A DNA stretch of 63,712 bases, counting the filler. It is 7 parts of 7 records of this genome, joined end to end, with 100 filler letters (N's around TTAATTAATTAA, not from the genome) between each part and the next. Parts side by side here need not be neighbours in the genome. Positions count along the whole stretch, not along the records: positions 1 to 18,704 come from SRR20825010_1586; 6 more parts are not named here. One strand, written 5' to 3'. The position numbers were made by a program, and so were the translations under genes. Below the pieces are notes generated by a model that was given only the letters and a program-made list of their open reading frames with translations, was not told the DNA's origin and did no database searches. This document shows, piece by piece, positions 1,186 through 26,100 of this stretch; position 1 is the stretch's first letter; every line of letters begins with the position of its first letter.

Positions 1186-1190
1186 TCAAT

Positions 1191-1803: not shown

Positions 1804-1821
1804 AATATTAATTAATTGATC

Positions 1822-2166: not shown

Positions 2167-2318
2167 AATAATAGTTTAATAGTTGAGGTCAAATATATAA
2201 AAAACCCGTTTGGAGAACACTTAGATCAAAAAAAAAATAGGTAAAACTATTAACAATTGATCCTTAATAATGTTCAAAACTGCAAATGCTTAATGTCTTA
2301 AAAGACTGATAAATCGCA

Positions 2319-3791
2319 TTAGATAAGAATTCCAATAACTGAAACATCGTCGACCTGTTCTGCACTTCCCTTCCATTCAGCAAAGTGATTTTCGAGACGT
2401 TCTTTCACCTCTATCATTGATTCCCCATAAGAACTGAGTAACAAGTTCTTTAATTCCTGCATTCCCATTTTTTTTCCACGACTTCCTCCGAATTGATCCG
2501 CAAACCCGTCTGAGAAAAGAAAAATGACATCTCCTTTTTTTAATTGAATGTGATCTACATTAAAAACACTCTTTTTTGCATGTCTTCCAATCGGTTGTCT
2601 GGTTGATGGTATTTTCAAAAGTTCCCCATTTGAAAGCACTAAAATTCCATTGTTCGCCCCAGAGAACTCTAGAGTTAACGTATTTTTATCAAGGTTACAG
2701 AGGGCAATGTCCATCCCATCATATCCTTTTGAAAAGCGACCAGAAACAAGATCATCGACCTGCCCCAAAAAGCTTCCCGTTGAATTAAACTCCCCTAAGG
2801 TCATAATTCGATTCATTGCATTTGAGCACACTACACTCACCATTGCACCTGGAACTCCATGCCCTGTACAATCACCCAAAGCGAAGAAAACATTATCACC
2901 CGATTCTTCCAACCAATAAAAATCTCCAGAGACTATGTCTTTAGGTAAATAAACAATAAAATGATCACTAAAATTTGTCGAAAACTTCGGTCTTGGAGGA
3001 AGGAATGCTTCTTGAATATTTAGTGCATATCGAATTGAATCATTAATATCTCTATTTTTTGTCTCAATCTCTGTTTTCTGACGAATAAGCAGTTTTTTTT
3101 GCTCTTGATCATTCCTTAAGATTTTTCGAGCGTAAATGGAAAGTACAACTGCGAGACTAGCTATAATAAGTAGCGTAATTAAAATTGCCTCCAAGTAATC
3201 TTTTCGAACCATCATCATGAACTTCGAAAAGTCTACATCAGCTTCTAGGACGCAGACTAAGTCACCGGCCTTGTTTTTCACTGGATGAAAAGCAGACAGC
3301 CAAACCCCATTTTCGGATGAATACCTTGGAAGTGTACCTCCTATTTCCATTTTATCCACTAACTCTTTCGGAAAACGCACGTATTCATGGCGGAAATAAA
3401 CATTTTCACCCGAGCGAATTCCCTGAACAAAGATTCTTTTTTCCTGATCGTATGTGAGTGTATAAATGGGCTGTTCTAGGTGATTAATTTTAGCCACCTG
3501 AGAAAACAGTGCATTGTACATCAAATAGGTACTGTCATCTGAAATTGAATGTATTCCATCTTTTTCAGGATATTTGTTCAACATTCTTTCTACTGCATCT
3601 CCGTCCATGACTAACGCCAGTGAACTAACGATTGATTTCAACTTGTCGTATTGTCGAATTTCCTGAAGTTTGAGTGCATTGTAATAACCAAAAGTGATAT
3701 AAAATCCAGAAATACCAATAATTAGAAGGTAAATTACCAACATAATTCTAGTGGCAGTATTCCGTATGATCTGTCTGATTAAACTACTCAA
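2319..3791 (-). CDS. membrane sensor with SpoIIE/PP2C phosphatase domain
   Basis: Two TM helices flanking an extracytoplasmic domain; PKDIVSGDFYW, DCTGHGVPGA, DGMD, SDGFADQFGG and QVDD motifs. Confidence 0.9.
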   Translation of the reverse strand: MSSLIRQIIRNTATRIMLVIYLLIIGISGFYITFGYYNALKLQEIRQYDKLKSIVSSLALVMDGDAVERMLNKYPEKDGIHSISDDSTYLMYNALFSQVAKINHLEQPIYTLTYDQEKRIFVQGIRSGENVYFRHEYVRFPKELVDKMEIGGTLPRYSSENGVWLSAFHPVKNKAGDLVCVLEADVDFSKFMMMVRKDYLEAILITLLIIASLAVVLSIYARKILRNDQEQKKLLIRQKTEIETKNRDINDSIRYALNIQEAFLPPRPKFSTNFSDHFIVYLPKDIVSGDFYWLEESGDNVFFALGDCTGHGVPGAMVSVVCSNAMNRIMTLGEFNSTGSFLGQVDDLVSGRFSKGYDGMDIALCNLDKNTLTLEFSGANNGILVLSNGELLKIPSTRQPIGRHAKKSVFNVDHIQLKKGDVIFLFSDGFADQFGGSRGKKMGMQELKNLLLSSYGESMIEVKERLENHFAEWKGSAEQVDDVSVIGILI

Positions 3792-3915
3792 GGCGTTTTA
3801 ATTTTAATTTAACGGTTCAACGATAAAGATGCTCAAACTTTTTGAATGTAATTCTTTAGACGAGAATCTTTTGAAAAATCGACGAACATACTTACCTTAA
3901 CTTCAAATTTTAACC

Positions 3916-4539
3916 ATGTCAAGATTTATCGCTCCTCTTTTTCTTCTGCTGTTGTTATTCTCTTGTAATAAGGGAACTCCCAGTTTTGTTATTAATGGAA
4001 ATATTTTAGACCTTACATTTGGACAGCCGCTTGAGGGCGCTGATGTAAAGCTGTTTCAACTTTCTATTGGGAGTTCTTCATATAAGCAAATTGCATCGAC
4101 ACAAACTGGAAGTGATGGCAGTTATTCATTTGAATTTAACCGCGATAAAACAGAATCTTACATTATTCAAGTTTCGAAAAATGATTACTTTTCTAAGGAA
4201 GATGAATTTTCTCTTTCCGATTTATCAATTAAGGAAACGAACTATAGAAACTTCTTTGTAACTGCTAAATCGTGGGTGAATTTACGTTTTGTACATACAA
4301 GTGGAAGTCAATCGGATGTTTTGAAATACATAAAACAAGAAGGTAAGCAAGAATGCGACGATTGCTGTCCAACTACGTATCAGTATGTAAACGGATTGAT
4401 CGATACGTCAATTTACTGTATCAACGATGGAAACACGACGTATTCATACATTTACTGGTTGTTAAACACTACACAACAAGGAAGTAAGTCAATTACAACT
4501 GTACCTTTCGATACCGTCGAATTAGTTCTGAGCTACTAA
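3916..4539 (+). CDS. lipoprotein with carboxypeptidase-regulatory-like domain
   Basis: Lipobox LLFSC; PLEGADVKL...TGSDGSYSF transthyretin-like pattern. Confidence 0.7.
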   Translation: MSRFIAPLFLLLLLFSCNKGTPSFVINGNILDLTFGQPLEGADVKLFQLSIGSSSYKQIASTQTGSDGSYSFEFNRDKTESYIIQVSKNDYFSKEDEFSLSDLSIKETNYRNFFVTAKSWVNLRFVHTSGSQSDVLKYIKQEGKQECDDCCPTTYQYVNGLIDTSIYCINDGNTTYSYIYWLLNTTQQGSKSITTVPFDTVELVLSY

Positions 4540-5465
4540 TATTTTCGGAGTTTAATGGAGGTCGAATATTCAGGTGATTGAATTGTCACTAGATAAATCC
4601 CTTCAATTAAACCGTTCAAATTCATTTCTATTGTTTGCCTTCCTTCTCCGAGTTCACCCGAATACAGGTTTTTAACTAGTTCTCCAGCAAGATTAAACAA
4701 TTTGATCTGCGCATTGATATCTTGAGGTAATTCTAGTTCCAATTGCGATGCCTCTCTCGCTGGATTAGGGAAGACTTTGGCCGAAAACTCTACTTTAACT
4801 TCCGATTCCGTACTATCAATATCCTCCTGAACATATTCAATAAATGATGGCGTGAAACCCATTCCACCCAACCTCATGATGTCTCTGTTAACATCCTCAA
4901 ACTCCATTGGCTCATACCTCATAGCACCTTGAATGTTTTCAATTGGAAAATCAGGAACTATTTGAATCACTTCGATCTCAGCTTTACCTACTTTCGGAAT
5001 TACTGTTGGAACTGCTTGTACATTTTCAGTACTGACAACTAACGTGTCATTCTGGAGTTTTGGGACCTCATTTTTTTCATGAATCAAGGATTGTCCAGCA
5101 GTTTGAATTTCGCCGAATTTCCGTTTTTCTTCTTCATTACAGCTAAATAGTGTAAATCCGAAAGCGACAATTAGAGAGAAGATTAAAATACTTTGAAACG
5201 AACGTTTATTGTTTCTCTCCCAAGCACGAAAATCAACGTTCATGGTTTCCAAAGTACTCGGGGAAATTCTTCCACAAAGGCTCCCTGATTGATTATTCAA
5301 TAAAACTTGTTTGATTTCCATCGGTGATTTTCCGCTAAAATCGTAGACTTCAAGAGAACATTTTTTACAAAAAGCTCCCAATTCTGTAGGTGTCATCTTG
5401 TTCCAATCTTCAGAACAAGGCTTGTCAATATAGATTCCCATGGCGTTGATTTTGATCCTGTACAT
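4536..5465 (-). CDS. T9SS type A sorting domain protein with N-terminal Cys motif
   Basis: C-terminal VFPNPA...LFNLAGELV...GIYLVTI domain; N-terminal PCSEDW..M...FCKKC..EVYDF...CG motif. Confidence 0.8.
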   Translation of the reverse strand: MYRIKINAMGIYIDKPCSEDWNKMTPTELGAFCKKCSLEVYDFSGKSPMEIKQVLLNNQSGSLCGRISPSTLETMNVDFRAWERNNKRSFQSILIFSLIVAFGFTLFSCNEEEKRKFGEIQTAGQSLIHEKNEVPKLQNDTLVVSTENVQAVPTVIPKVGKAEIEVIQIVPDFPIENIQGAMRYEPMEFEDVNRDIMRLGGMGFTPSFIEYVQEDIDSTESEVKVEFSAKVFPNPAREASQLELELPQDINAQIKLFNLAGELVKNLYSGELGEGRQTIEMNLNGLIEGIYLVTIQSPEYSTSIKLRKY

Positions 5466-5507
5466 GCAAGATGCACATTTGGTTCAAAATCCACAGAAGC
5501 GCTTTAT

Positions 5508-7019
5508 TTATTCGTCTTCGAGATTTGCTCTAAGTTTCTGTCTTAACTGTCGCACGTATGTTTCGCTGATATACTTCAAGTAATTCGGAGTACTTTTCGT
5601 GATACATTTTGTGTAGTGCTTCAAGCGATGCTCGATGTGGTCTTTCAACATTTCCATAAGTTCAAGCCCATGAAAATAATCTTCCGCCGCATCACAAATT
5701 ACTTTAAAGTGATTCTCAAGAGATAAATCTACTGCCTCTTTCCCTTTTAATCCGCGGTCAACGCAATCGTAGTAAACATCTTTGATACTGAATTCTTCCA
5801 GTTCTTTAACGTTTAAAATTTCTTCTGATCCTCTAGGGAATTCAAATTCTGTTTCAAATTCTAGATCCTCTGTTTCGCTTAATCTTGCTTCTAAGAACCT
5901 ATCTGGAAAACGGAAGGCATCTTGCCAATTCAAATAATCTTGCCACAAGCCGAATCGTCGAACATTATTCCCTAAGTCGATGACCTTAAATCGGTCTTTT
6001 TTAGGCAGCTTTCGCGATCCACGCCCGATCATCTGGTGATACAATGTTAAAGAACGCGTGGCTCTATTTAGTATAATTGTCTCAACTGTTGGCTCATCAA
6101 ATCCTGTTGTCAAAATCCCAACTGACGAAAGAATCGCATCAGGTGTTTTCTTAAACCAGCTCAATACATCTTTTCTATCCTTATCGCTAAATGTTGAATC
6201 CAAGTGTCGAATTGGGAAACCGCGTTTTTTAAACGTTTCCTCAACACGAAGAGATGTATCAATTCCTGAGTTAAAAATCAACGTCTTATTCCCTACTGCA
6301 ACTTCTTCATAAGCAAAAAGTAACTTTTCTTGCATGAAATAGTTCCCGTAAACCACGTCAGAGCTACTTACTGTAAAGTCGCCATTCGAACCAATTTTCA
6401 AACCGTGAAGGTTTACATCGTATGTATATGAATCCGCATCCGCCAAGTATCCCGATTCGATAAGAGAAGAAATGCTTTCACCAACTAGTAACTTATTATA
6501 GTTATCGTTTAGGGGAAGTGCTTTGTTACTGCTCAAAGGTGTCGCTGTTACACCAAGTATATTTGCATTCTCATAATACTGGAAAATCTTTCTAAAGCTA
6601 TTATAGTGCGCCTCATCAACAATTACCAGGCCTACACCTTTGATAAAGTTCTCATCGTCGCTTAATCGGTTGTTTAGTGTTTCAACCATTGCAATGAAGC
6701 AGTTAAATTCCGTTTGATCAGGAATCGTCTTTACCTCGCTGTTAATGATCTTATTTCCAACACCAATTGCCGAAAGTTGCTTTGATGTCTGAACAGAAAG
6801 TTCAATCCTATGTGTTAAAATAAGTACCTTTTCATTCGTTTGCTCAATGTAATTCCGAGCAATTTCAGAGAAAATCACGGTCTTACCTCCACCCGTAGGT
6901 AATTGAAACAAAAGATTGAAATCTTTCCCATTATCATGAAGTTCTTTTAGAAGTAATTTTACTGTTTTCTCCTGAAAAGGGTAAAGCACTTTGGCTTCGT
7001 AAAGTTCCGTATCAATCAT
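5508..7019 (-). CDS. SF2 DEAD/DEAH-box helicase (RadD/ResIII-like)
   Basis: LPTGGGKT, DEAH, TATP, TTGFD and QMIGRGSR motifs. Confidence 0.9.
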   Translation of the reverse strand: MIDTELYEAKVLYPFQEKTVKLLLKELHDNGKDFNLLFQLPTGGGKTVIFSEIARNYIEQTNEKVLILTHRIELSVQTSKQLSAIGVGNKIINSEVKTIPDQTEFNCFIAMVETLNNRLSDDENFIKGVGLVIVDEAHYNSFRKIFQYYENANILGVTATPLSSNKALPLNDNYNKLLVGESISSLIESGYLADADSYTYDVNLHGLKIGSNGDFTVSSSDVVYGNYFMQEKLLFAYEEVAVGNKTLIFNSGIDTSLRVEETFKKRGFPIRHLDSTFSDKDRKDVLSWFKKTPDAILSSVGILTTGFDEPTVETIILNRATRSLTLYHQMIGRGSRKLPKKDRFKVIDLGNNVRRFGLWQDYLNWQDAFRFPDRFLEARLSETEDLEFETEFEFPRGSEEILNVKELEEFSIKDVYYDCVDRGLKGKEAVDLSLENHFKVICDAAEDYFHGLELMEMLKDHIEHRLKHYTKCITKSTPNYLKYISETYVRQLRQKLRANLEDE

Positions 7020-7167
7020 ATTTTTTCCTGCAAAAATGCGGCTACAAAGCTAGTGTCTTTTTAATGAAAACACAAATTAAAGTGCTTTATTCGGAGAATT
7101 AAATACTTGAATTCCTAAGCTTGCCTCTTCTAAGGAGAAAAGCGACCCAACATATTTCGCGAAATGT

Positions 7168-7175
7168 TACTTTTG
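7168..7175 (+). promoter_or_regulatory. Bacteroidota -7 promoter box (TAnnTTTG) upstream of trxB
   Basis: TACTTTTG about 40 nt before the ATG. Confidence 0.5.
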
Positions 7176-7212
7176 TTCCTACGTCTAAAGAATAAACATT
7201 AGTTAAAATAAA

Positions 7213-8163
7213 ATGAGCGAAATAGAAAAAGTAAAGTGCTTAATTATTGGTTCTGGCCCTGCTGGATTTACGGCTGCAATATATGCAGCAAGAGCTGATA
7301 TGAAGCCTGTCTTATATCAAGGAATGCAGCCTGGAGGACAGCTTACAACAACAAATGAAGTAGAAAATTTCCCTGGTTATCCGGATGGTGTAACTGGTCC
7401 AGAAATGATGATTCAACTTGAAGCGCAAGCAAAAAGATTTGAAACAGATGTTCGTTTTGGATTCATAAACAAGGTTGATTTCTCTGGTGATGTTCATAAG
7501 GCTTGGGTAGAAGATGGTACTGAAATTCATGCAGATACAATCATTATCTCAACTGGAGCTTCAGCTAAGTATTTAGGTCTAGAAAGTGAACAACACTATT
7601 TGAAAATTGGTGGTGGGGTTTCAGCGTGTGCGGTTTGTGATGGGTTCTTTTACCGTGGTCAAGAAACAGTAATTGTTGGCGCTGGAGATTCAGCGTGTGA
7701 AGAGGCACACTACCTTTCAAAATTATGCACAAAAGTAACCATGTTGGTTCGTCGTGATGAGTTTAGAGCTTCAAAAATCATGGCAGAACGTGTTAAGAAT
7801 ACGCCAAATATTGAAATCTTATTCAACACGAATACGGATGAAGTTTTAGGTGATGGACAAGGTGTAACTGGTGTTCGTGTGAAAAATTCAGTAACGGGAG
7901 AATTGAAAGAAATTCCTTGTACAGGTTTCTTCGTAGCGATTGGTCACAAACCAAATACGGACATATTTAAGGATTATATTAACCTAGATGAAACAGGTTA
8001 CATTAAATACGAGCAAGCTGGAACCTCGAAAACGAATGTGCCTGGAGTTTTCGTAGCAGGTGATGCAGCGGATAAAACATATCGTCAAGCTGTTACTGCG
8101 GCAGGAACGGGATGTATGGCAGCATTGGATGCAGAGCGTTACTTAGCAGCTAAAGGACACTAA
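7213..8163 (+). CDS. trxB: thioredoxin-disulfide reductase
   Basis: GSGPAG, GGQLTTT, CAVCDG active site, YRQAVTAAGTGC. Confidence 0.97.
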   Translation: MSEIEKVKCLIIGSGPAGFTAAIYAARADMKPVLYQGMQPGGQLTTTNEVENFPGYPDGVTGPEMMIQLEAQAKRFETDVRFGFINKVDFSGDVHKAWVEDGTEIHADTIIISTGASAKYLGLESEQHYLKIGGGVSACAVCDGFFYRGQETVIVGAGDSACEEAHYLSKLCTKVTMLVRRDEFRASKIMAERVKNTPNIEILFNTNTDEVLGDGQGVTGVRVKNSVTGELKEIPCTGFFVAIGHKPNTDIFKDYINLDETGYIKYEQAGTSKTNVPGVFVAGDAADKTYRQAVTAAGTGCMAALDAERYLAAKGH

Positions 8164-8182
8164 TCCTCGTAAACATTATTGT

Positions 8183-8220
8183 AAAAAGAGCGGTGAATTT
8201 GAATTCACCGCTCTTTTTTT
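8183..8220. terminator. bidirectional intrinsic terminator
   Basis: AAAAAGAGCGGTGAATT / AATTCACCGCTCTTTTT perfect inverted repeat between convergent genes. Confidence 0.85.
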
Positions 8221-8262
8221 GCTTTTATCTTTCTCTTGGAAAACTATGAGTCAAATCGACTC

Positions 8263-9324
8263 TTATGGTTGAATAAATCGCGTTTTTTCGGTTATTTCTA
8301 TGGGATTGTCATTGTACCAATAAATAAACCCAGACCATTTATCACTGTTTGCCTCTAGCCAAGTTTTAAATTCATCTTCATTTCCTTTCATCATCAACCA
8401 ATGATTGTATGCTTCAAAATGCCCTTCTTTCTTTACTTTTTTCTGGTATTCGAAAAGTACAATTGGAAATGTTTCATTGTGTCCCGCTTCGTAATACTGA
8501 TCTACAAACGTCGTGCGAACTTTATTCAACGATCCAATTGTAACGTCCTTCATTAGAGCACAACTAATTGAAAAAATGGGTGCATAAACAGAAAGGCCAT
8601 AAGGCAATTTGAAATTCTCAAGATCATTGAGTACTATTTTATCACTTGAGATATCAATTCTCATTGAGGTGTCGCTAGTGATCGTAATTGCCTTTGTATA
8701 GGTATCGAAAATCTCTTGGCTAATTTGCTCTGTTCTTTTCGATCCTCTTTCGAGATTCATAAATAGTTCAGCATAAATTAAACCTAAATATCGATCCTCT
8801 GAATTCATGTAAATTCTTGCACACCAATAGTAGTTTGATGGAAACTCAGGATCTTCAAGTGTCCCTTTTATGTAATAATCGAGCGCTGCATTAAACTTGT
8901 CATTCGCCAGTTCCATATTTCCGCGCTCCAAATATAACTCCCCTGATTTCGGGAATTTCTTGAGTCCTTCTTCATAGGTTTTGATTGCCAAATCGGATTG
9001 TCCGTTATAGTCGTAAGTATTTCCTAATAATTGGTAAGCGCGAGGGAATGTATTTTTATCATCCGTGATCTTTTGCAAAATGGAAATCGCTTTTTTGTAG
9101 TCTTTTTTTAGCGTGTATGCAAATCCCATCTCGTATTGATAGTCCAAATTCTTTGGATCTAGCTTTTGCGCTTTTTTCAAAAGAACAATCGATTCCTCAA
9201 TTTCTCCTTTATCCATTTTTTCGATGGCAGTTATACAAAGGTCTCTTGCTTCTTTTTCTTTCTCCGTTTGTGCTGCTACAGCTAAAGGTAACACACAGAA
9301 TAGTAGAACGTAAATGGCTTTCAT
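8263..9324 (-). CDS. secreted TPR-repeat protein
   Basis: Signal peptide MKAIYVLLFCVLPLAVAAQ (start moved to ATG 9324); several TPR motifs. Confidence 0.8.
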   Translation of the reverse strand: MKAIYVLLFCVLPLAVAAQTEKEKEARDLCITAIEKMDKGEIEESIVLLKKAQKLDPKNLDYQYEMGFAYTLKKDYKKAISILQKITDDKNTFPRAYQLLGNTYDYNGQSDLAIKTYEEGLKKFPKSGELYLERGNMELANDKFNAALDYYIKGTLEDPEFPSNYYWCARIYMNSEDRYLGLIYAELFMNLERGSKRTEQISQEIFDTYTKAITITSDTSMRIDISSDKIVLNDLENFKLPYGLSVYAPIFSISCALMKDVTIGSLNKVRTTFVDQYYEAGHNETFPIVLFEYQKKVKKEGHFEAYNHWLMMKGNEDEFKTWLEANSDKWSGFIYWYNDNPIEITEKTRFIQP

Positions 9325-9384
9325 AGTTGAATGTTTTTTGCTACGAATTTTAAGATGATTAATCACTGACTGCTTTAATTAGTT

Positions 9385-10107
9385 TTACATTCCCGAATCA
9401 AGAAGGTCATTATCGTCTAAACGAATCGTTGCCACTCCACTTTGTAATTTTGACAAAAGCACTTCCATTTTGTGGTATTCCTTAATCATTTTAACTGCAA
9501 AAATTGCAGCAATGATAGAGATCGACGATGCAACTATACTTAGAAAACCGAATATAATTTGACCATCAATATCGTTGATTTTATCGCCTTGATTAGCGAT
9601 GGCTCCCAAAATTGAAGAGATTATCCACAAAGTCCACCAAACACCTGCTATTTTCATTCTCTTGGGATTTGCTTCGATCAATCCTTCTGCTACTAACAAA
9701 CCTTCCGTTTTTGTGAAGAGTTCTTTAGCAATCTGGAATGGTCCAAACCAGCTAAAAACAGGAATAAACCAAGCTCCAGCAGCCCATCCCTCGCTATACT
9801 GAAGTCCATTTGTTAATTGGTGTAAATTCCAATAAGCCCGTCTGAACCACATTATGAAATACACTATGGCAATGACGTTTACAGCGAGTAGAATCAATCC
9901 TCCAAACCCAAGTAGTATAAGCACAGGTCCAGACTGTAAACCTTCTGATAAATAAGTAAGATTTCCATATTCTAAATTCTTTAAGTCAAAAAGTACTTTT
10001 ATTGAATAGAGTTCAATTATCAATCCTAATATTACACCTCCAAGAATAAACCACATTGTTAATATGGCGTTCTTAGAACGTTGCTCGTTATCTTTCAGTT
10101 TAATCAT
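9385..10107 (-). CDS. DUF4328-family membrane protein
   Basis: FIMWFRRAYWNL...SEGWAAGAWFIP...P.QI..EL...WW.LW pattern. Confidence 0.8.
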   Translation of the reverse strand: MIKLKDNEQRSKNAILTMWFILGGVILGLIIELYSIKVLFDLKNLEYGNLTYLSEGLQSGPVLILLGFGGLILLAVNVIAIVYFIMWFRRAYWNLHQLTNGLQYSEGWAAGAWFIPVFSWFGPFQIAKELFTKTEGLLVAEGLIEANPKRMKIAGVWWTLWIISSILGAIANQGDKINDIDGQIIFGFLSIVASSISIIAAIFAVKMIKEYHKMEVLLSKLQSGVATIRLDDNDLLDSGM

Positions 10108-10146
10108 GATTAGTTTTTTTGATGCTAATATCAGTAAAAAAAGTAA

Positions 10147-10788
10147 TTACTTCACCTTATCTTGAAGCATTGGTACAAAACTGAACACTCCCAAATCGTC
10201 TTCGAGAAATCCATTTTCGGTTTTAACAATTAGTTTCATCATTTGCTCGGCGCCTTCTCCCACGGGAATAATCATTAATCCACCTAATTTAAGTTGATCT
10301 ACCAAATCCATTGGAATTTCTGGCGCACCGCATGTAATAATGATTTTATCAAACGGAGCAAATGTCGGCAAGCCTTTATAACCATCTCCAAAGCTAAGTC
10401 TAGCGTTGAAATTAAAATGTCGCACCATTTCTTTTGCTTTCAAATGAAGCGGACGATGACGTTCGATACTGAACACTTTCGCTCCCATTTCGCACAAAAT
10501 GCACGTTTGAAACCCAGATCCAGAACCAATTTCAAGGATCTTCTCCCCTTTTTGGATATCCAGAAGCATTGTTTGAAATGCTACGGTATACGGGTGACTG
10601 ATCGTTTGTCCTGACCCGATTTGAAATGCCATATTCGTATACGCCTGCTCTGCAAACGCGTTGTCTAAGAAAAAGTGACGAGGAATGGAATCAAATGCAT
10701 TTAACACTCTCTCATCGGAAATTCCCTTTTCTCTAAGCTCAGAGATTAACTTTCGACGCATTCCTTTATATCTGTACGAATCTTGCAT
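10147..10788 (-). CDS. pcm: protein-L-isoaspartate O-methyltransferase
   Basis: IPRHFF, GQTISHPY, LEIGSGSGFQ, APFDKI and FVPM motifs. Confidence 0.95.
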   Translation of the reverse strand: MQDSYRYKGMRRKLISELREKGISDERVLNAFDSIPRHFFLDNAFAEQAYTNMAFQIGSGQTISHPYTVAFQTMLLDIQKGEKILEIGSGSGFQTCILCEMGAKVFSIERHRPLHLKAKEMVRHFNFNARLSFGDGYKGLPTFAPFDKIIITCGAPEIPMDLVDQLKLGGLMIIPVGEGAEQMMKLIVKTENGFLEDDLGVFSFVPMLQDKVK

Positions 10789-10926
10789 GGTGCAAATTTA
10801 ACGCTATCTGATCAACTTCTTCTGAGAGAATATAAACATTTCACTGTGGATTATCTCCGTGTATTTGTGCTTCACGCCGTTCATCAAGAAATCGCGAATC
10901 GTGTTAAAGTCACAAAACAGAATGTG

Positions 10927-10934
10927 TATATTTG
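10927..10934 (+). promoter_or_regulatory. Bacteroidota -7 promoter box
   Basis: TATATTTG about 22 nt upstream of ATG 10957; a divergent copy (TAAATTTG, minus strand 10793-10800) precedes pcm. Confidence 0.5.
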
Positions 10935-10956
10935 AGCCACTTAAGAAAATTGAACT

Positions 10957-12600
10957 ATGGCTATTTCTCCGAAGGAACTAGAATTTAATAAGAATGACGA
11001 TGAAATGCGCCTCAAGATTTCTGCACTTGAGCGCGAATTGGGAAAGATCTATGAGGGCGGTGGAAAAAAACGCATCGAAAAACTTCATAGTCAAGGTAAG
11101 TTAACTGCAAGAGAGCGCATTGACTTATTATTGGATCCAGACGCTGAAAGAATTGAAATTGGCGCGATAGCTGGTTACGGAATGTATAAAGAGCACGGCG
11201 GATGTCCATCTGGAGGCGTTGTTGTTGTGATTGGATATGTAAGCGGGAAGCAATGTATTGTTGTTGCGAATGATGCTACAGTAAAAGCTGGTGCATGGTT
11301 TCCAATCACAGGAAAAAAGAACCTTCGAGCTCAAGAGATTGCGATGGAGAATCGTTTACCGATTATCTATTTGGTAGATTCTGCGGGAGTATTCCTTCCG
11401 ATGCAAGATGAAATTTTCCCTGACAAAGAGCACTTCGGGAGAATTTTCCGAAACAATGCTGTAATGAGTTCTATGGGAATTGTTCAAATAGCTGCCGTTA
11501 TGGGAAGTTGTGTCGCAGGTGGCGCGTACTTACCTATCATGTCTGACGAATCCTTAATTGTAAATAAAACTGGAACTATTTTCCTTGCAGGTTCTTACCT
11601 CGTTAAGGCAGCCATTGGTGAATCGATTGATAATGAGACATTGGGTGGAGCGACAACGCACACTGAAATTTCTGGCGTATGCGATTACAACGTAGAGACA
11701 GATGAGGAATGTTTGTCTACGATTCGCGATTTAATGGATAAAATCGGTCAACCTGAAAATGCAGGATTTGATAGAAAAGAATCGGCTCCTCCGAAAGAAA
11801 ATGAGCGCGATATTTATGGAATCCTTCCTGCAGATCGTTCGAAACCGTACAATGTCCGCGATATTATCAACTGCCTAGTAGATGATTCTAAATTTACGGA
11901 GTACAAAGAAAATTATGGTCAATCCATCGTGTGCGGATATGCACGTGTAGATGGTTGGAGCGTTGGAATTGTAGCGAATCAGCGAGAGATTGTGAAAAAC
12001 GCAAAAGGCGAAATGCAATTTGGCGGAGTGATCTATTCTGATTCAGCGGACAAATCTGCGCGATTTATAATGAATTGTAATCAAAAGAACATTCCCCTCG
12101 TATTTATTCAGGATGTTACTGGATTTATGGTGGGATCGAAAAGTGAACACGGTGGAATCATCAAAGACGGTGCGAAAATGGTGAGTGCCATGGCGAATTC
12201 TGTCGTTCCTAAGTTCACGATCATCACAGGAAATTCATACGGAGCTGGAAACTACGCGATGTGCGGAAAGGCTTACGATCCACGTTTAATCGTTGCATGG
12301 CCAACTGCTGAACTTGCTGTAATGAGCGGTGCAGCTGCGGCAAAAGTATTGTTGCAAATTGAAGTAGCATCGTTGAAATCGAAAGGAGAAGAAATTACTC
12401 CTGAACGCGAGAAAGAACTCTTTGATACAATTAAAAACAGGTACGACGAACAAATTTCGCCTTATTATGCGGCAAGTAGATTATGGGTCGATGCAATCAT
12501 TAATCCACTAGAAACGCGAAAAGTGATCTCTATGGGAATTGAGATGGCGAGTCATAAAAAGGCAGAGAAACCATATAACGTTGGTGTTATTCAAACATGA
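10957..12600 (+). CDS. acyl-CoA carboxylase carboxyltransferase subunit (methylcrotonyl-CoA carboxylase beta-like)
   Basis: GKLTARERI, ANDATVKAG, GSCVAGGAY and SYGAGNYAMCG motifs. Confidence 0.92.
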   Translation: MAISPKELEFNKNDDEMRLKISALERELGKIYEGGGKKRIEKLHSQGKLTARERIDLLLDPDAERIEIGAIAGYGMYKEHGGCPSGGVVVVIGYVSGKQCIVVANDATVKAGAWFPITGKKNLRAQEIAMENRLPIIYLVDSAGVFLPMQDEIFPDKEHFGRIFRNNAVMSSMGIVQIAAVMGSCVAGGAYLPIMSDESLIVNKTGTIFLAGSYLVKAAIGESIDNETLGGATTHTEISGVCDYNVETDEECLSTIRDLMDKIGQPENAGFDRKESAPPKENERDIYGILPADRSKPYNVRDIINCLVDDSKFTEYKENYGQSIVCGYARVDGWSVGIVANQREIVKNAKGEMQFGGVIYSDSADKSARFIMNCNQKNIPLVFIQDVTGFMVGSKSEHGGIIKDGAKMVSAMANSVVPKFTIITGNSYGAGNYAMCGKAYDPRLIVAWPTAELAVMSGAAAAKVLLQIEVASLKSKGEEITPEREKELFDTIKNRYDEQISPYYAASRLWVDAIINPLETRKVISMGIEMASHKKAEKPYNVGVIQT

Positions 12601-12604
12601 GAAT

Positions 12605-13066
12605 ATGATTTTAGATTGGCAAATAAAACACTATCGCGATTTAACGCTGAATGAATTTCATGACATTATAGCGTTGAGATTAAACGCATTTGTCGTAGAA
12701 CAAAACTGTCCGTATTTAGATTTGGATGGAAAGGACAAAAAAGCGTACCATATCATCTGTAGAGATGGTAAAGGTGATATCGTAGCAACAGCAAGGATTC
12801 TTCCTCCAGGAATCGCCTATTCAAATGTGGCAGTTGGAAGAGTTGTTACCAGCGAAGGGATTCGTGGACACGGCGTTGGACATGAGTTAATGGAAAAAGC
12901 AATGGATTTTTGTCTCCTCGAATTCGGGAACGAGCCAATTCGCATTTCGGCACAGAAACATTTGGAAAACTATTACGGCAAGCATAAATTTTTAACGACA
13001 GGAAAAGAGTACTTGGAAGATGGAATTCCACACGTAGAAATGCTCTTTGAACCAAAAAACAACTAA
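12605..13066 (+). CDS. ElaA-like GNAT acetyltransferase
   Basis: FVVEQNCPYLDLDGKD, GRVV and YLEDGIPH motifs; start moved to in-frame ATG 12605. Confidence 0.88.
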   Translation: MILDWQIKHYRDLTLNEFHDIIALRLNAFVVEQNCPYLDLDGKDKKAYHIICRDGKGDIVATARILPPGIAYSNVAVGRVVTSEGIRGHGVGHELMEKAMDFCLLEFGNEPIRISAQKHLENYYGKHKFLTTGKEYLEDGIPHVEMLFEPKNN

Positions 13067-13068
13067 AC

Positions 13069-15144
13069 ATGAAATATACTTTATTAACATTCGCGGCGCT
13101 TAGTCTCGTAGCATGCGACTCAATTAAGAAAGGATCGCAAGAAACAGTTGCTGAAGCTGTGGAAACTGCAACTCCTAAGCCACCGCGCGAAGGTGCGTCG
13201 ATAGATCTTGGTTACATGAACAATGCTGTTCGTCCACAAGATGACTTCTTTGAGTTCGCAAACGGAACTTGGATGAAAAGTAATCCAGTGCCTGCTTCTG
13301 AATCACGTTGGGGAAGTTTCAACGAATTGGATCAATCCAACAAAACGAAACTCACGACTATTTTAGAGGCCGCAAAAGCCAACCAAGGACAAAAAGGTTC
13401 TATGAATCAAATTCTTGGTTCGTATTATTCTTCGTACACAAACATGGAAGTCCGTGAGAAATTTGGTTTTTCTCCGATCGCTGAGGAATTAGAAATTATC
13501 CGTAAAGCGAATTCAAAGAAAGACCTTTTCATGATCGTTTCTGATCACCATGTATATGGAATTGGTTCTCTTTTCGGTTTTGGAGTTGGACAAGATTTGA
13601 AGGATGTTGATAATCACATTTCTTACTTCGGTCAAGGTGGAATTGGCTTGCCAAATAGAGATTATTATTTCTCCGAAGACAAAGCAGAAATCCTGAGAGA
13701 ATACAAAAGACATATCTCAATCATGATTGGTATGACTGATATGGAAGAAGGTACAACGGTGGATGAATTCGCGACTTCTGTTATCAACTTTGAAAAACAA
13801 CTTGCGGAAAGCATGATGCGTCCTGCGGAATTAAGAAGCCCAGAGAAAACGTACAATAAAATGCACCGTAATGAATTAGCATCTTATTTGGGAGGTTTTA
13901 ATTTCGATGGATATTTGAAAGGAATTGGAAGCATGGCTTTCGACTCAGTAATTGTGGCTCAGCCAGATTTCGCGAAGAAAATTGCCGTGATGATGAACGA
14001 CGTATCATTAAGCGATTGGAAAAACTACCTTAAATGGCAAGTATTGAATCACTACGCAGGAAGTTTGAGTTCGTCTTTTGTAGACCAAAATTTCGAATTC
14101 TACGGAAAAGTATTGAGTGGAAAGAAAGAAATGAAGCCTATCAATGAGCGTGCAATCGATAATATTACTGGAAAATCATTTGGTGAATTACTCGGGAAAG
14201 CATTTGTTGAAAAGCACTACTCTAGTCAAGCACAGCAACGTGTAAACGAAATGGTTGACAATCTATTGGCTGTTTTCCAAGAGCGAATTGATGCTTTGGA
14301 CTGGATGTCTGGTGAAACAAAAACAGAAGCTTCGGTGAAACTTAATTCTATCGGAAGAAAACTCGGTTTCCCTAGTAAATGGGAAGATTTTAGTTCATTG
14401 GATTTCTCGAATGAAAGATATGTTCAGAATCTTAAAAATGTGGCCGCTTATGATCACAAAAAGAACATGAAGGAGTTGAACAAGCCTGTTGACAAAGAAG
14501 AATGGGGAATGCCAGCTCACATGGTGAACGCTTATTATCATCCATTATTGAATGAAATTGCTTTTCCAGCTGGAATTATGCAAGCTCCTTTCTTTAGTGA
14601 TTCGTATGAAGACGCTGTGAATTACGGTCGTATTGGAATGGTGATCGGACACGAATTTACGCATGGTTTTGACGATATGGGATCGAAATTTGCTGCCGAT
14701 GGATCATTTAGAAACTGGTGGACAGAAAGCGATCGTAAATTGTTTGAAGAGCGCACTGGAAAATTAGGAATGACGTTCGCAGGATTTTGTCCAATTGACG
14801 GTCACTGTGTAAATCCAGACTTAACGATGGGTGAAAACATCGCCGATCTCGGTGGATTAACAATGGCTTACTATGCTTACACTCGCACGAGTGAGTTCCA
14901 AGCAGGAGTGAAAAAATTGGGATATACTCCAGCGCAACGTTTCTTTATAGCCTACGCACAATTGTGGAAAATCAATTATACAGAAGAAGAATTGAAAAAC
15001 CGCATTGCGAATGATCCGCACTCACCTGGTATGTACCGTGTGAATGGACCTTTGATGAACTGCCCAGAATTTTTCGAAGCGTTCGACGTAAAAGAAGCGG
15101 ATCCGATGAGAAATTCAGAAGAAGAAATCAGTAAGATCTGGTAG
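13069..15144 (+). CDS. M13 (neprilysin/PepO-like) metallopeptidase, lipoprotein
   Basis: Lipobox LVAC; PQDDFF..ANG, VNAYY, HEFTH, GENIAD and DPHSP motifs. Confidence 0.95.
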   Translation: MKYTLLTFAALSLVACDSIKKGSQETVAEAVETATPKPPREGASIDLGYMNNAVRPQDDFFEFANGTWMKSNPVPASESRWGSFNELDQSNKTKLTTILEAAKANQGQKGSMNQILGSYYSSYTNMEVREKFGFSPIAEELEIIRKANSKKDLFMIVSDHHVYGIGSLFGFGVGQDLKDVDNHISYFGQGGIGLPNRDYYFSEDKAEILREYKRHISIMIGMTDMEEGTTVDEFATSVINFEKQLAESMMRPAELRSPEKTYNKMHRNELASYLGGFNFDGYLKGIGSMAFDSVIVAQPDFAKKIAVMMNDVSLSDWKNYLKWQVLNHYAGSLSSSFVDQNFEFYGKVLSGKKEMKPINERAIDNITGKSFGELLGKAFVEKHYSSQAQQRVNEMVDNLLAVFQERIDALDWMSGETKTEASVKLNSIGRKLGFPSKWEDFSSLDFSNERYVQNLKNVAAYDHKKNMKELNKPVDKEEWGMPAHMVNAYYHPLLNEIAFPAGIMQAPFFSDSYEDAVNYGRIGMVIGHEFTHGFDDMGSKFAADGSFRNWWTESDRKLFEERTGKLGMTFAGFCPIDGHCVNPDLTMGENIADLGGLTMAYYAYTRTSEFQAGVKKLGYTPAQRFFIAYAQLWKINYTEEELKNRIANDPHSPGMYRVNGPLMNCPEFFEAFDVKEADPMRNSEEEISKIW

Positions 15145-15170
15145 AACTCGTTCTGCAAGAAATAGAATTG

Positions 15171-15200
15171 AAAGCCATCTCATTGCGAGGTGGCTTTTTT
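15171..15200 (+). terminator. intrinsic terminator of the M13 peptidase gene
   Basis: AAAGCCATCTC / GAGGTGGCTTT hairpin followed by a T-tract. Confidence 0.8.
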
Positions 15201-15392
15201 GTTTTCAGGGAATGAAGGGGATTTGGTGTGTGAAAGGTAGATTCAAAAAAAGTAGATCAAAATGCCCTACTCTGCCGAAAAAAAGTAATTTAGGAGAGAT
15301 AATCTAACTGAAATCAAGTACTTGTAAGCATTTGTTTGTCGGATTAGTTCTTTGCCAGTCAGGTTTTGGCTGAGATTTGGCGGAGAGGATTT

Positions 15393-15437
15393 ATAAGTTG
15401 GCTAAACGCCATGGAGTTTAGCCAGTAGTTATGAGCA
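15393..15437 (+). mobile_element. attI-like (or minimal attC-like) recombination site at the head of the cassette array
   Basis: Palindrome TGGCTAAAC-GCCATGGA-GTTTAGCCA (15399-15424) followed by GTTATGAGCA (15428-15437), the reverse complement of 17768-17777. Confidence 0.55.
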
Positions 15438-15508
15438 ATATGCAATTGGCTCGGTGGAACATTAGAAAACATGCAGAGAGCACGCAGAATGCATAGGAAG
15501 TTGAATAC

Positions 15509-17734
15509 ATGAATAAAAAACAAATAGATATTTCATATTTATTGACCGGTCCAGAATCCATAGTTTCTCCGCCGGCGGACACGAGAATTAGCGAATTGCC
15601 AATCAATAAATTATCTTGGGTTGATTTCGAAAGGCTTTGTTTAAGGTTAGTTGAGGAAGAGCATTCAATTGAGAAATGCGAAATTTATGGTGTTTCCGGC
15701 AGTAAGCAAGAGGGTATCGATATTTTCGCATTCAAAAATACCGATAAATATGAGTGTTTTCAGTGCAAGAGATATCAAGCCATTTCACCTGGTCAACTTG
15801 ACGAAATTGTACATGACTTCAAGAAAGGTAACTGGTGTTCAAAAAGTGATAAATTTTATTTGTGCACAAGTCTCAAGTTAAATTCAACAAGTCTGCAGGA
15901 TAAATTCAATTCGCTAAGGTCTGATCTAAAAAAGATCGGCATTGACTTTGTTAAATGGGATAGCGTCCAGATTAACAGAATTCTGAAAAAGCATCCCACA
16001 ATAGTACGTAATTATTTCGGGGATGTCTGGTGCAAATTGTTTTGTGGTGAGTCTCATGAAGACCCTAATACATTGATAATAGACCAATTCAGAAATGAAT
16101 TAGCTGAAATAAAACAACTACTAATTGGAGGACAAGACAGTAATAAACTGAATTCAATCATCCAAAAGGCCTATGATAAAGAACACTATTGGGTTGAATC
16201 TGAAATGGTGTTCGCGTTCAATCAAGCACTTGAACAATACAATGCGACTATCGTTGATAAGAGAGATAAATTTTCTTCTACTCAAAGAATTATCCAGTCA
16301 ATTTTTAATCTGTCAGAGTTAAATGAAATCGTTGACGACTGGGTTAAAGATTCATTTTCACCGGAAAACCTTGATCATATACGTTTTATTCAAAGTGGAT
16401 TATTCGCATTTAGCTGCTTAGAGAAAATTCCAAAGGATATATTAAAGGATTTAAAGCTATTGAATTGGTGTCCAATTCATCATGGTTATTTCTCAGGTCA
16501 TCTTGCTAGTTTTATTGCTGAGATTAAGTTATCAATGGATTTGAAATTGGATTTAGTCGAAACATATCGCTCAGATCGATATCTATTCGAAAACCTTACG
16601 CGAATAATTAGTTCAGTGAAGAGATTTTTAGAATACGATGTAAACGAACTTTACGTTGAAAAACCAACGGCCTCTATTGTTAGAAATTTACCTAGAAATT
16701 TTGTTCTAATCATAACTTCCACTGACCTAAGCCTTCGAAACCCAAAAAAAATAGATCAGATATATGCAAAGTTACCATTAGATAGACAATTAAGAGTATC
16801 TAGCGTCGAGGTTGTTAGAACTTTGAATTCAACCCTTATAGTTGGTATCAACGCTCGAGATTGTTTTTATTGGAATCCAGAGCAAGATTTAACAGCCAAT
16901 TTCTTTTATCATGCACCAGAAAATGAGAGAATTGATGACATTTTTTGCAAAATTGAAGACGATGGGTCAATTCAAACGATAGTTCAGATTGAAGAAAAAA
17001 TAATGGTGTTTAATGAATTCCGTCATTTAAAGAATTATTATTTAGATTTCTATCTCAAGTTGACTCCCTTTAATTTGGGGTTTGTTGGGATCGGAAATAA
17101 TTACCTCAATAGTACTGGAGAATTAGTATATCAAATTTCTGACGATTTTCAAATTAATCCAATAATAACAATTGAATCAATTAGATCGAGTATTTGGGAC
17201 TTCAAAGAAATTAATGAATGGCTGAAATCATTCGAACTAAGTAAAGAAGCCTCATTTCTTTTTAATTTGCAGAACATCAAACTTCAAAGAATTGATCACA
17301 ACGGTGAAGAGTTGATCTTACTACGTGGATCTACCAATGGTACTGGAGCTTTCCTTCTTATTCGTTTAGGAAAAGTCGAATATGAGATTTTGAATATTCA
17401 TCATCTAAAGGAATCAATTTCGATCGCAATAGATTACATCGAAAAGGGAGCTGATTTAGAACTTTACTGCGCGTATCTTGATTTAAATAGAAGAGATAGT
17501 GTATTTGAACATATTAAAATTAAAAACCACAGAACTTTTGCGTCTAAAACACTAACTAGAGAACGAAAGGACAATGATTGCCGAGATATTGTAGATATTT
17601 CGGTAGGCAAAAATGGATTTATATATCTCAATGAAATGGAAGAAAAAATTCTTGTATTCTCACTGCACAATGAAGAATTTGAAGAATATGATTTTAAAAG
17701 AGAACGAGTTCACTTCATGAAGTATTACAGTTAG
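15509..17734 (+). CDS. cassette 1: N-terminal Mrr-like PD-(D/E)xK nuclease domain fused to an unknown, probably beta-rich C-terminal region
   Basis: FERLC...YG..G..QEGIDI...FQCKRY...WD motif; no Walker A motif seen; C-terminal half made of short hydrophobic strands. Confidence 0.7.
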   Translation: MNKKQIDISYLLTGPESIVSPPADTRISELPINKLSWVDFERLCLRLVEEEHSIEKCEIYGVSGSKQEGIDIFAFKNTDKYECFQCKRYQAISPGQLDEIVHDFKKGNWCSKSDKFYLCTSLKLNSTSLQDKFNSLRSDLKKIGIDFVKWDSVQINRILKKHPTIVRNYFGDVWCKLFCGESHEDPNTLIIDQFRNELAEIKQLLIGGQDSNKLNSIIQKAYDKEHYWVESEMVFAFNQALEQYNATIVDKRDKFSSTQRIIQSIFNLSELNEIVDDWVKDSFSPENLDHIRFIQSGLFAFSCLEKIPKDILKDLKLLNWCPIHHGYFSGHLASFIAEIKLSMDLKLDLVETYRSDRYLFENLTRIISSVKRFLEYDVNELYVEKPTASIVRNLPRNFVLIITSTDLSLRNPKKIDQIYAKLPLDRQLRVSSVEVVRTLNSTLIVGINARDCFYWNPEQDLTANFFYHAPENERIDDIFCKIEDDGSIQTIVQIEEKIMVFNEFRHLKNYYLDFYLKLTPFNLGFVGIGNNYLNSTGELVYQISDDFQINPIITIESIRSSIWDFKEINEWLKSFELSKEASFLFNLQNIKLQRIDHNGEELILLRGSTNGTGAFLLIRLGKVEYEILNIHHLKESISIAIDYIEKGADLELYCAYLDLNRRDSVFEHIKIKNHRTFASKTLTRERKDNDCRDIVDISVGKNGFIYLNEMEEKILVFSLHNEEFEEYDFKRERVHFMKYYS

Positions 17735-17767
17735 TAGAGCAATCAAATTACGAAATATTATAAATCA

Positions 17768-17845
17768 TGCTCATAACACTAGCTAAGAAAACATAGCCGC
17801 CCCTGCGGGGACGGCAACGTTTCTTAGCTTTGTCCGTTATGTGCA
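17768..17845 (+). mobile_element. attC-like site 1 (imperfect hairpin)
   Basis: TGCTCATAAC-act-AGCTAAGAAA...GCCG-CCCC-tgc-GGGG-a-CGGC...TTTCTTAGCT-ttgtcc-GTTATGTGCA. Confidence 0.75.
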
Positions 17846-17883
17846 ACTGACCATTACTCAAAAACCATAGATTGTAAACCATT

Positions 17884-18216
17884 ATGGATAATCAGCAAGC
17901 AAAATTGAAATATTTGGATGAAAAAGTCTTTTACAATTTGAATAATCTTAACGATGGATTTGATGCCGATTCAATTAAGTATTTTAATGCTGAAGAGTTT
18001 GAAATTGTGTTGACCCGTATAACCGAGCTTAATCTCGGTGTATACGGGATTGAACCATGGTTAAATGGTGAGTTCTATAACGTGTTAACTTGTGAGGATT
18101 ATAATAAAAAGCCTACTGATCCAGAATGGTACATTACTGCATTTAATCAATTCAAGTCTTCGAACCCAAAATTGCAATTCTCGGCATCATATTATATTCC
18201 ATCTACTAAATTTTAG
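17884..18216 (+). CDS. cassette 2 ORF A, hypothetical protein
   Basis: 110-aa ORF starting 48 nt after the GTT box; no family recognised. Confidence 0.7.
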   Translation: MDNQQAKLKYLDEKVFYNLNNLNDGFDADSIKYFNAEEFEIVLTRITELNLGVYGIEPWLNGEFYNVLTCEDYNKKPTDPEWYITAFNQFKSSNPKLQFSASYYIPSTKF

Positions 18217-18218
18217 TT

Positions 18219-18527
18219 ATGCAGAAACTCTGGTGCTGGAGATGTAAAATGGAAATTCCTATGCTTGACAAGGACGAGTTTGCCATTGCAAGTAAATTAT
18301 ATGGAGATGCGTTTAAGAAAACTGGAATACCACTTAAAGATCGGTTCAAACCACTACTCGAATACTACGAATCCGTGACTGGTTTCAAAGAGACTGTCCC
18401 CAATGCAGTAATGCACCACTGTATAGATCATCATGGACCTCCCTGTGAAAAATGTGGTAAACCATATCGCACTCCGCAGGCATCATTTTGTGCAGCTTGC
18501 GGAAATAAACGTGAAGGAAGCACATAA
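18219..18527 (+). CDS. cassette 2 ORF B, small Cys-rich (zinc-ribbon-like) protein
   Basis: Three CxxC pairs (CWRC, CEKC, CAAC); its TAA stop lies inside the CATAAC box of site 2. Confidence 0.75.
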   Translation: MQKLWCWRCKMEIPMLDKDEFAIASKLYGDAFKKTGIPLKDRFKPLLEYYESVTGFKETVPNAVMHHCIDHHGPPCEKCGKPYRTPQASFCAACGNKREGST

Positions 18528-18652
18528 CAAAGGCTTAAAAAGCATACGGGTTTATGCTTCGGACAATCAATTTTGGTTTGAAAACTATTCCTATCTTTAA
18601 AATAAAACCTTGGTAAAGAGTCCGTACGACTTTCTAGCCTCGGTCGTTATTA
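18520..18652 (+). mobile_element. attC-like site 2 (imperfect hairpin with long loop)
   Basis: GCACATAAC-aa-AGGCTTAAAAAGCATACGG...CCGTACGACTTTCTAGCCT-cggtc-GTTATTA. Confidence 0.72.
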
Positions 18653-18654
18653 CA

Positions 18655-18704
18655 ATGATAATCACTACCAAGCGGAATAAGATGTATTTAAAAATAGGAC
18701 TTGT
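18655..18704 (+). CDS. probable start of a cassette 3 ORF, cut by the contig end
   Basis: In-frame ATGs at 18655 and 18682 (MIITTKRNKMYLKIGL...), open to the gap. Confidence 0.35.
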
Positions 18705-18804
18705 NNNNNNNNNNNNNNNNNNNNNNNNNNNNNNNNNNNNNNNNNNNNTTAATTAATTAANNNNNNNNNNNNNNNNNNNNNNNNNNNNNNNNNNNNNNNN
18801 NNNN
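18705..18804. other. artificial contig spacer
   Basis: N-run + TTAATTAATTAA (stops in all six frames) + N-run. Confidence 0.98.
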
Positions 18805-26000: not shown

Positions 26001-26100
26001 NNNNNNNNNNNNNNNNNNNNNNNNNNNNNNNNNNNNNNNNNNNNTTAATTAATTAANNNNNNNNNNNNNNNNNNNNNNNNNNNNNNNNNNNNNNNNNNNN
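26001..26100. other. artificial contig spacer
   Basis: N-run + TTAATTAATTAA + N-run. Confidence 0.98.

Follow-up and report, generated by a model that had tools for sequence, protein, structure and literature searches.

The DNA analysed here (referred to as the window; 63,712 bases, seven contigs joined end to end) contains, in the last 3.3 kb of its first contig (contig 1, positions 1-18704), a short array in which two hairpin-forming sequences, site 1 and site 2, follow one or two open reading frames (ORFs) each. Together with a shorter, degenerate site 0, they are interpreted as attC-type recombination sites that bound at least two complete cassettes and belong to a large, widespread family of Bacteroidota sites with a fixed architecture and a dedicated recombinase, and we place the probability of this interpretation at about 0.72. 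Overall, the results support assigning both hairpins to an integron-like system of cassettes that has a site geometry of its own and, in relatives, a distinct type of recombinase; an enzyme of this type may also serve the organism carrying the window array, through the mechanism proposed below.

Hairpin geometry and cassette boundaries in the window

The earlier note on this DNA had described a geometry common to both hairpins, AAC-N4-GCT ... AGC-N7-GTT, and this was borne out by a search of the window for AAC-N4-GCT-N(20-140)-AGC-N7-GTT, which gave three matches on the plus strand and none on the minus strand: site 1 (17775-17838), site 2 (18526-18648) and an unrelated match within a gene (7551-7635). 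The lengths proposed for the two sites were about 78 and 133 nt; the first agrees with site 1, and the second falls short of the 137 nt spanned by site 2. Similarly, the left inner arm is one base longer than the right in site 1, where a 10-bp stem is followed by one bulged base (a T on the bottom strand), whereas in site 2 this varies with the alignment; a gap-free pairing of the two 16-nt arms, with 11 Watson-Crick pairs and three A.C positions, is also possible. When counting starts at the first stem pair, both sites have spacers of 3 and 6 nt, although those of site 2 can also be read as 2 and 5 nt. The right boxes do read GTTAT instead of GTTRRRY, a difference of little weight given that only GTT is fixed in the wider family described below, where GTTGT, GTTAG, GTTAC and GTTAT were all seen. 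The hairpin of site 1 is strong, with a folding energy of -22.3 kcal/mol for the top strand (z -5.9) and of -23.5 kcal/mol for the bottom strand (z -6.7), equalled by none of 200 shuffled sequences. A further calculation made the bottom strand the more stable one in both window sites, with -23.1 against -21.6 kcal/mol in site 1 and -14.0 against -12.0 kcal/mol in site 2.

The boundaries of the cassettes can be read from the outer boxes. Cassette 1 starts with GTTATGAGC, whose exact reverse complement is the left box of site 1, GCTCATAAC; likewise GTTATGTGC, which is both the right box of site 1 and the start of cassette 2, has its exact reverse complement in the left box of site 2, GCACATAAC (9 of 9 nucleotides in 2/2 cassettes). 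Each left box thus pairs with the start of its own cassette, so that a circularised site would present a perfect 9-bp outer box, as in integron cassettes. The same rule holds in relatives of these sites: in 36 of 43 cassettes, the 6 nt that precede AAC are perfectly complementary to the 6 nt behind the GTT with which that cassette starts (mean 5.77 of 6), compared with 1 of 43 (mean 2.21) for the adjacent box and 3% for random pairs. These 43 cassettes belong to 10 loci of nine genomes and derive from the 68 of 92 matches to the site model R1 (see below) that lie in loci with at least three matches, after leaving out the rows of locus L080 that repeat locus L128 and dropping 11 matches in which AAC or GTT was off its expected offset.

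Contig 1 is also present in three runs of one study (X1-X3), from which the window may derive and of which assembled contigs only were compared, a form of data from which rare forms would be dropped. A 2.7-kb contig from these runs carries a site similar to site 1 (67 of 73 nt) in another context, and another contig matches positions 18652-18704 of the window, preceded by different letters that end in another ...AGC-N7-GTTAT. The start of cassette 3 is therefore found behind two different sites, which explains the break of contig 1 at this position, and these alternative contexts fit, at the level of sequence comparison, a shuffling of cassettes.

A family of asymmetric sites in Bacteroidota

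Related sites were sought in 80 named Bacteroidota loci gathered around homologues of the zinc-ribbon protein of 102 amino acids (aa) encoded in cassette 2, and in many of these loci recognisable sites of one kind stand directly after the stop codon of the homologue. An open scan of 853,669 nt, in which both spacers were free to vary from 0 to 9 nt and reversed sequences served as controls, found an excess only at an AAC-side spacer of 3 nt and a GTT-side spacer of 5-6 nt, with counts of four at (3,5), six at (3,6) and one at (3,7) against 0, 0 and 0 in the controls. A second, ungapped scan yielded 25 sites against four in the controls (16 against 3 at (3,6), 9 against 1 at (3,5)), and no excess at the classical combinations (5,5) (0 against 4) or (5,6) (3 against 2). 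Sites scored as 0/6, in which the stem is preceded by ..TAAC-AAC, were taken as 3/6 from the neighbouring AAC.

Read on the bottom strand, a set of 25 sites, none of them from the window, shares the order AAC, 5-6 nt, 16-bp stem, variable part, return stem, 3 nt and GTT. RNAalifold predicts the 16-bp stem from these 25 sites, with compensatory changes in 10 of the 16 pairs, which is the covariation that the earlier note had proposed to look for in homologous sites of other Bacteroidota. As many as 97.9% of the cells in the stem are paired, a share that falls to 84.4% after shuffling (with none of 500 shuffles reaching the observed value) and to 28-48% on sliding the partner columns; it is partly due to construction, the seed sites having been picked by a stem-based scan, as the compensatory changes are not. 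A G.U pair occupies stem position 7 in 25/25 sites and position 12 in 24/25, and in most relatives the irregularities of the stem are such G.T wobbles, with no bulged base. The two G.T wobbles of the bottom strand become A.C mismatches on the top strand, which makes the bottom strand the more stable one in most sites, namely in 71 of 86 distinct sites (13 opposite and two ties), by 2.13 kcal/mol on average. Both the covarying stem and the more stable bottom strand lend indirect support to the earlier suggestion that these sites are recognised by their structure.

The model R1 was built from the 25 sites, thus without the window, and when it was run over the whole window with filters off, the only two matches at E<=1 were to site 1, with 20.6 bits and an E value of 0.012, and to site 2, with 13.2 bits and an E value of 0.57; each was of full length, lay on the minus strand and had no insertion or deletion in the spacer columns. 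Among 86 distinct R1 matches the short spacer measures 3 nt in 86/86, and the long spacer is 6 nt (52 matches) or 5 nt (30 matches) in all but four, as counted in an alignment fitted to the model, and the AAC and GTT triplets are found in 87 and 84, respectively, of 92 family matches. Moreover, site 2 aligns column by column with a class of sites of about 123 nt and is 77% identical (108 of 140 columns; 59% when shuffled) to a site at L142:6049-6187, part of an array in a Crocinitomicaceae metagenome-assembled genome in which all four sites have ATAAC/GTTAT boxes, like those of the window. Within the Crocinitomicaceae-type family of the window sites the first stem pair shifts, giving spacers of 2-4 against 5-8 nt with a difference of 3-4 nt, so that the conserved feature is the asymmetry and not the literal 4/7 spacing. 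The expectation of a conserved 4/7 geometry therefore stands as far as a difference of roughly 3 nt is concerned and fails in its literal form, the relatives having 3 against 5-6 nt. A search of Rfam returned no attC match for the window sites and two chance-level matches to other families.

It could be argued that the hairpins have nothing to do with recombination, being terminators or repetitive palindromes that share their spacing by chance, in line with the non-significant fold of site 2 and with the literal pattern matching once by chance within the window itself. The longer literal pattern ATAAC-N4-GCT...AGC-N7-GTTAT, searched in 401 genomes of the order of genome G001, likewise matched 43 of them at what was taken as chance level, with at most three unclustered matches each, and its backwards control also matched many of the 401 genomes. 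Such an origin of the hairpins is nevertheless highly improbable, since it is already contradicted by the matching cassette ends (2/2 in the window and 36/43 in relatives), by the membership of both sites in the R1 family and by the homologue of site 2 within an array, to which the covariation of the stem and the position of arrays beside recombinase genes can be added.

The array-linked recombinase and known systems

In relatives, sites of the family lie within about 3 kb of a tyrosine recombinase gene in 8/8 loci (L066, L130, L131, L128, L142, L143, L144, with a weak match of E 0.08, and L057) of six genomes that were chosen because they have sites. The array of L128 counts at least 18 sites and ends about 1.9 kb from the recombinase gene, and at least 22 sites are present in that genome when L080 is included. 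The exact 9-mer expected to open the first cassette was located 85 nt (L142), 78 nt (L131) and 167 nt (L128) from the recombinase gene, that is, in three of six loci, and no exact match was found in the other three. In L142 (G408:C5) four direct GTTATA repeats stand just before the first cassette boundary, GTTATAAAC, about 85 nt past the stop codon of the recombinase, and GTATAT-like repeats occupy the same putative attI position in L131 and L128. The recombinase profile matches 29 of 41 sampled genomes in the family of genome G408, and 6 of 10 loci taken from that family run into the end of their contig within 3 kb, as the window array does. In a set of loci selected by the recombinase first, R1 found tandem sites downstream in 3/9. 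A Pontibacter genome carries the recombinase gene three times (L057, at G410:C4:180918-181715, L143 and L144), with sites following every copy, and the gene of L057 has an internal stop codon.

An enzyme of 355-386 aa was found in 4/5 array genomes (355-405 aa overall); it has SAM-like and catalytic domains with 31-35% identity to IntI1. All seven of the proteins compared score 200-211 bits against the integron integrase family TIGR02249, below its cut-off of 265, while IntI1, as a control, is matched in a single stretch with 508.6 bits. Genome searches with this family matched model positions of about 2-184 and 240-315 and skipped the stretch between them. Alignment to IntI1 indicates that about 44 residues including the ALER motif are missing in 4/4 recombinases, which keep the catalytic residues and carry 85-110 added residues at the N-terminus. 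The missing stretch corresponds to the IntI-specific domain by which surveys define IntI, according to the available parts of PMC4889954, an Archaea preprint and PMC2426708. Scores against the XerA family NF040815 are 200-230 bits (cut-off 220), and the best solved structures are XerA (PDB 5hxy, 4a8e) and VchIntIA (PDB 2a3v). Together with the 3-nt AAC-side spacer found throughout the family, array-side recombinases without the IntI-specific domain argue, indirectly, for the different recombinase specificity suggested in the earlier note.

The N-terminal domain of about 75 residues (L136:2326-2610, minus strand, and homologues) is predicted with a local confidence score (pLDDT) above 90 over 70 residues, has the topology strand-strand-helix-strand-strand-helix-strand and falls in no Pfam family. 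Weak likenesses were seen to the N-terminal domains of T4 UvsW (Z 6.7-6.8) and archaeal XPB (Z 5.9-6.2) and to the HARP domain of SMARCAL1; they serve only as a lead because Z values below 8 in VIA-align are middling; Foldseek gave no PDB match at E<=0.001 for this domain. The domains of UvsW, XPB and SMARCAL1 bind branched or damaged DNA.

On this basis, we propose that the bottom strand of each site would fold in the cell when single-stranded, and that a dedicated tyrosine recombinase would bind the AAC/GTT box and the inner stem and cut at the conserved triplet, so that a cassette would be excised and inserted in circular form, restoring its own site. The two strands would be told apart by the wobbles and the spacer asymmetry, a task performed by extrahelical bases in classical integrons. 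The enzyme acting on the window sites would be Xer/IntI-like, of 355-405 aa, without the IntI-specific domain and with the extra N-terminal domain, like the one that in relatives is encoded beside a putative attI and the array.

The family has much in common with classical attC sites: both are imperfect palindromes bounded by AAC/GTT boxes, with an inner stem, spacers that stay unpaired and a top that varies, both lie downstream of promoterless ORFs in one orientation with a left box that pairs with the cassette's own start, and in both the bottom strand is the more stable one. As a control, eight class 1 attC sites (aadB, aadA2, dfrA5, aac(6')-Ib, dfrA12, cmlA1, aadA1 and qacL) were taken from plasmid records; their AAC-side spacer measures 5 nt in 8/8, their GTT-side spacer 6 nt in 7/8 and 5 nt in 1/8, and a bulged base follows the first 3 bp of the inner box in 8/8. 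This agrees with the available part of PMC5027507, where attC spacers are described as 'usually five to six' nt. Sites of the present family differ in their AAC-side spacer of 3 nt (2-3 nt in the window), in mostly having no extrahelical base after 3 bp, in carrying two G.T wobbles five positions apart and in a net arm asymmetry that is reversed. The extrahelical bases of the R''-L'' arm, of which the first lies within the L box and the last comes 6 bp later, do not appear in the family, where 16 bp of stem run without interruption; in site 1 one bulge follows the first 10 bp, and site 2 needs none.

These likenesses would also be expected if the window sites were ordinary attC sites of a classical integron whose IntI, with its additional domain, is encoded elsewhere in the genome, the 3-nt spacer being a tolerated variation. 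Boxes, cassette logic and strand bias are all classical, and the mean difference of 2.13 kcal/mol equals the 2.12 kcal/mol between bottom and top strands of 263 attC sites given in the available part of PMC5027507. Besides, integrons have been reported in Bacteroidota (PMC8618304 and PMC9024848, as far as the available parts of these sources go), and the search for IntI was made in the genomes of relatives. We nevertheless regard a classical integron as unlikely, because 0/10 related site-bearing genomes have a TIGR02249 match over the cut-off, their arrays abut a recombinase without the additional domain, and the AAC-side spacer of 3 nt (86/86), with no bulge after 3 bp, departs from the 5 nt of the class 1 sites (8/8). 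The array-linked enzyme resembles IntI (TIGR02249; IntI1, VchIntIA) in being a tyrosine recombinase beside a putative attI and an array, and differs from it in lacking a domain of roughly 35-44 residues near patch III, in scoring below the family cut-off and in its extra N-terminal domain.

The same enzyme resembles XerA and other Xer recombinases (NF040815) in its best family, in the fold of its catalytic core and in having no IntI insertion, and differs from them in its N-terminal extension and in lying next to extended arrays of hairpin sites. In chromosome resolution, the targets of Xer enzymes are dif sites, short duplexes each consisting of two recombinase-binding arms that flank a short spacer. 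Real cassette sites recombined by housekeeping enzymes of the XerC/XerD type, as in IMEX elements and dif modules, would account for the Xer-like scores and the XerA and VchIntIA structures, and also for a window array that has no recombinase beside it and for the site-bearing genome G406, where just a Xer-like match was found. This explanation appears slightly less probable still than a classical integron, given that the extended recombinase adjoins arrays in 8/8 loci and lies 78-167 nt from the first boundary in three of them, and that the sites of the family, by direct reading, are hairpins of 60-200 nt with AAC/GTT boxes, unlike short duplex dif sites. In Clostridium plasmid records, members of the group named by NF040815 adjoin IS91-family transposases.

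Several observations weigh against a dedicated family and recombinase for the window sites. By energy alone site 2 forms no significant hairpin (z -0.9 and -1.5), the R1 scores of both window sites are low, with an E value for site 2 of 0.57, neither site is found by R1 with default filters, and the stem-based choice of the seed sites has been mentioned above. The X1-X3 contigs contained neither a junction with a cassette skipped nor a circular or excised form, and contig 1 encodes no recombinase (1-18704). With regard to the enzyme, 3/9 loci of the recombinase-first set have at least 12 kb downstream with no site at E<=0.1 and three more were too short, R1 being a weak detector of sites in the family of G408, and G406 has sites and no such extended recombinase, just a 319-aa Xer-like match. 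Lastly, the departure from the canonical attC model is one of geometry alone, and a classical IntI may be encoded elsewhere in the genome of the window organism.

Integrons are the textbook case of sites that are recognised by shape and not by sequence. The field ties this recognition to the extra IntI domain and the extrahelical bases, and the present family keeps the cassette logic and drops both. A tentative extension, to which we give somewhat less than even odds, is that it represents a second, parallel integron lineage of Bacteroidota, in which the recombinase lost or never had the domain linked with the recognition of attC structure, the sites do without extrahelical bases, the choice of strand would depend on the G.T wobbles and on an unpaired spacer of 6 against 3 nt, and the N-terminal domain may serve to recognise the attI repeats or the distorted junction. 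Surveys would have missed such a lineage because they take the IntI-specific domain and a proteobacterial attC model as the definition of an integron; in the available part of the IntegronFinder 2.0 report, Salinibacter is the sole complete Bacteroidetes integron named, and the literature searched, with subscription journals and supplements outside it, held no description of Bacteroidota cassette arrays with a recombinase that lacks the domain. If true, this would amount to a second structural solution to the same recognition problem, explain the apparent rarity of integrons in Bacteroidota, make a large reservoir of overlooked cassettes, some with defence-like genes, accessible to annotation, and give engineering a further, orthogonal system of structure-specific recombination. 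It would also turn the question of which unpaired features strand choice needs into a testable one.

Layout of contig 1 and further observations

The end of contig 1 consists, in order, of an M13 peptidase gene with its terminator, site 0, a 741-aa ORF, site 1, two small ORFs, site 2 and 50 nt up to the contig end (Table 1). Arrays in one orientation that start from a site beside the recombinase gene were found in relatives, and not in the window, where the genes upstream of the array are housekeeping genes. One of the upstream genes encodes a sorting domain of the type IX secretion system, which, as a sequence feature, points to Bacteroidota, and the host of contig 1 is taken to be a Bacteroidota genome, probably of the Crocinitomicaceae. 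Lacking an adjoining recombinase, the array is either similar to the integrase-free clusters of attC sites (CALIN) of Cury et al. (2016; PMC4889954), which the available part of that paper defines by the canonical attC model, or part of an array that is distant from its enzyme.

Table 1. Coordinates of the sites, cassettes and ORFs at the end of contig 1, in window positions.
Feature	Position	Strand	Description
Site 0	15393..15436	+	Short, probably degenerate; left array end; direct reading
Cassette 1	15429..17836	+	GTT of site 0 to GTT of site 1; one gene; 9/9 box complementarity
741-aa ORF (cassette 1)	15509..17734	+	N-terminal Mrr_cat restriction-endonuclease-like domain (Pfam PF04471, E 6.4e-5)
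Site 1 (short class)	17768..17845 (78 nt)	+	AAC 17775-17777, GTT 17836-17838; predicted recombining (bottom) strand is -
Cassette 2	17837..18646	+	Two genes
110-aa ORF (cassette 2)	17884-18216	+	
102-aa zinc-ribbon protein gene (cassette 2)	18219-18527	+	377 relatives, the named ones mostly in Bacteroidota genera
Site 2 (about 123-nt class)	18519..18655 (137 nt)	+	AAC 18526-18528, GTT 18646-18648
Cassette 3 (start only)	18647..18704	+	Ends at contig end

Site 0 begins with ATAAG, in the place where ATAAC is expected, and ends in GTTATGAGC, the box at 15428-15436 that also opens cassette 1 (GTT 15428-15430); between them lie a spacer of 2 nt, a stem of 8 bp capped by a loop of 8 nt and a second spacer of 4 nt. 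It gave no match to R1 that stands out, the best reaching 7.3 bits on the opposite strand. Site 0 was also considered as an attI and rejected, as it is without repeats of the GTTATA type seen at the putative attI of L142.

The three cassette proteins (741, 110 and 102 aa) fall in no PADLOC family, and the two proteins of cassette 2 in no Pfam family. P0001 (82%) and P0036 (85%), relatives of the two cassette 2 proteins, are both listed on a contig 1,886 nt in length, and the gene pair of this cassette may travel together.

Genome G001, nominally the nearest, was rejected as kin of contig 1; its conserved genes share only 65-71% identity with those of the contig, the locus is absent from G001, and no IntI over the cut-off was found in it. 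The window overall shares 34% of its words with G001, and the difference between contig 1 and the whole window in their likeness to this genome suggests that the seven contigs may not all come from one organism. The contigs are joined by linkers of the form N44-TTAATTAATTAA-N44 at positions 18705-18804, 26001-26100, 44088-44187, 51421-51520, 55599-55698 and 60524-60623. Near the other end of the window, an inverted repeat of 133 nt at 63087-63226, which R1 does not match, has GTGCAAC ... GTTGCAC ends, a 7-bp inner stem and spacers of 0 and 5 nt. At the start of the window, four tandem genes for small membrane proteins of the MpPF26 / DUF4190 / DUF4064 kind occupy positions 438-2166 on the minus strand.

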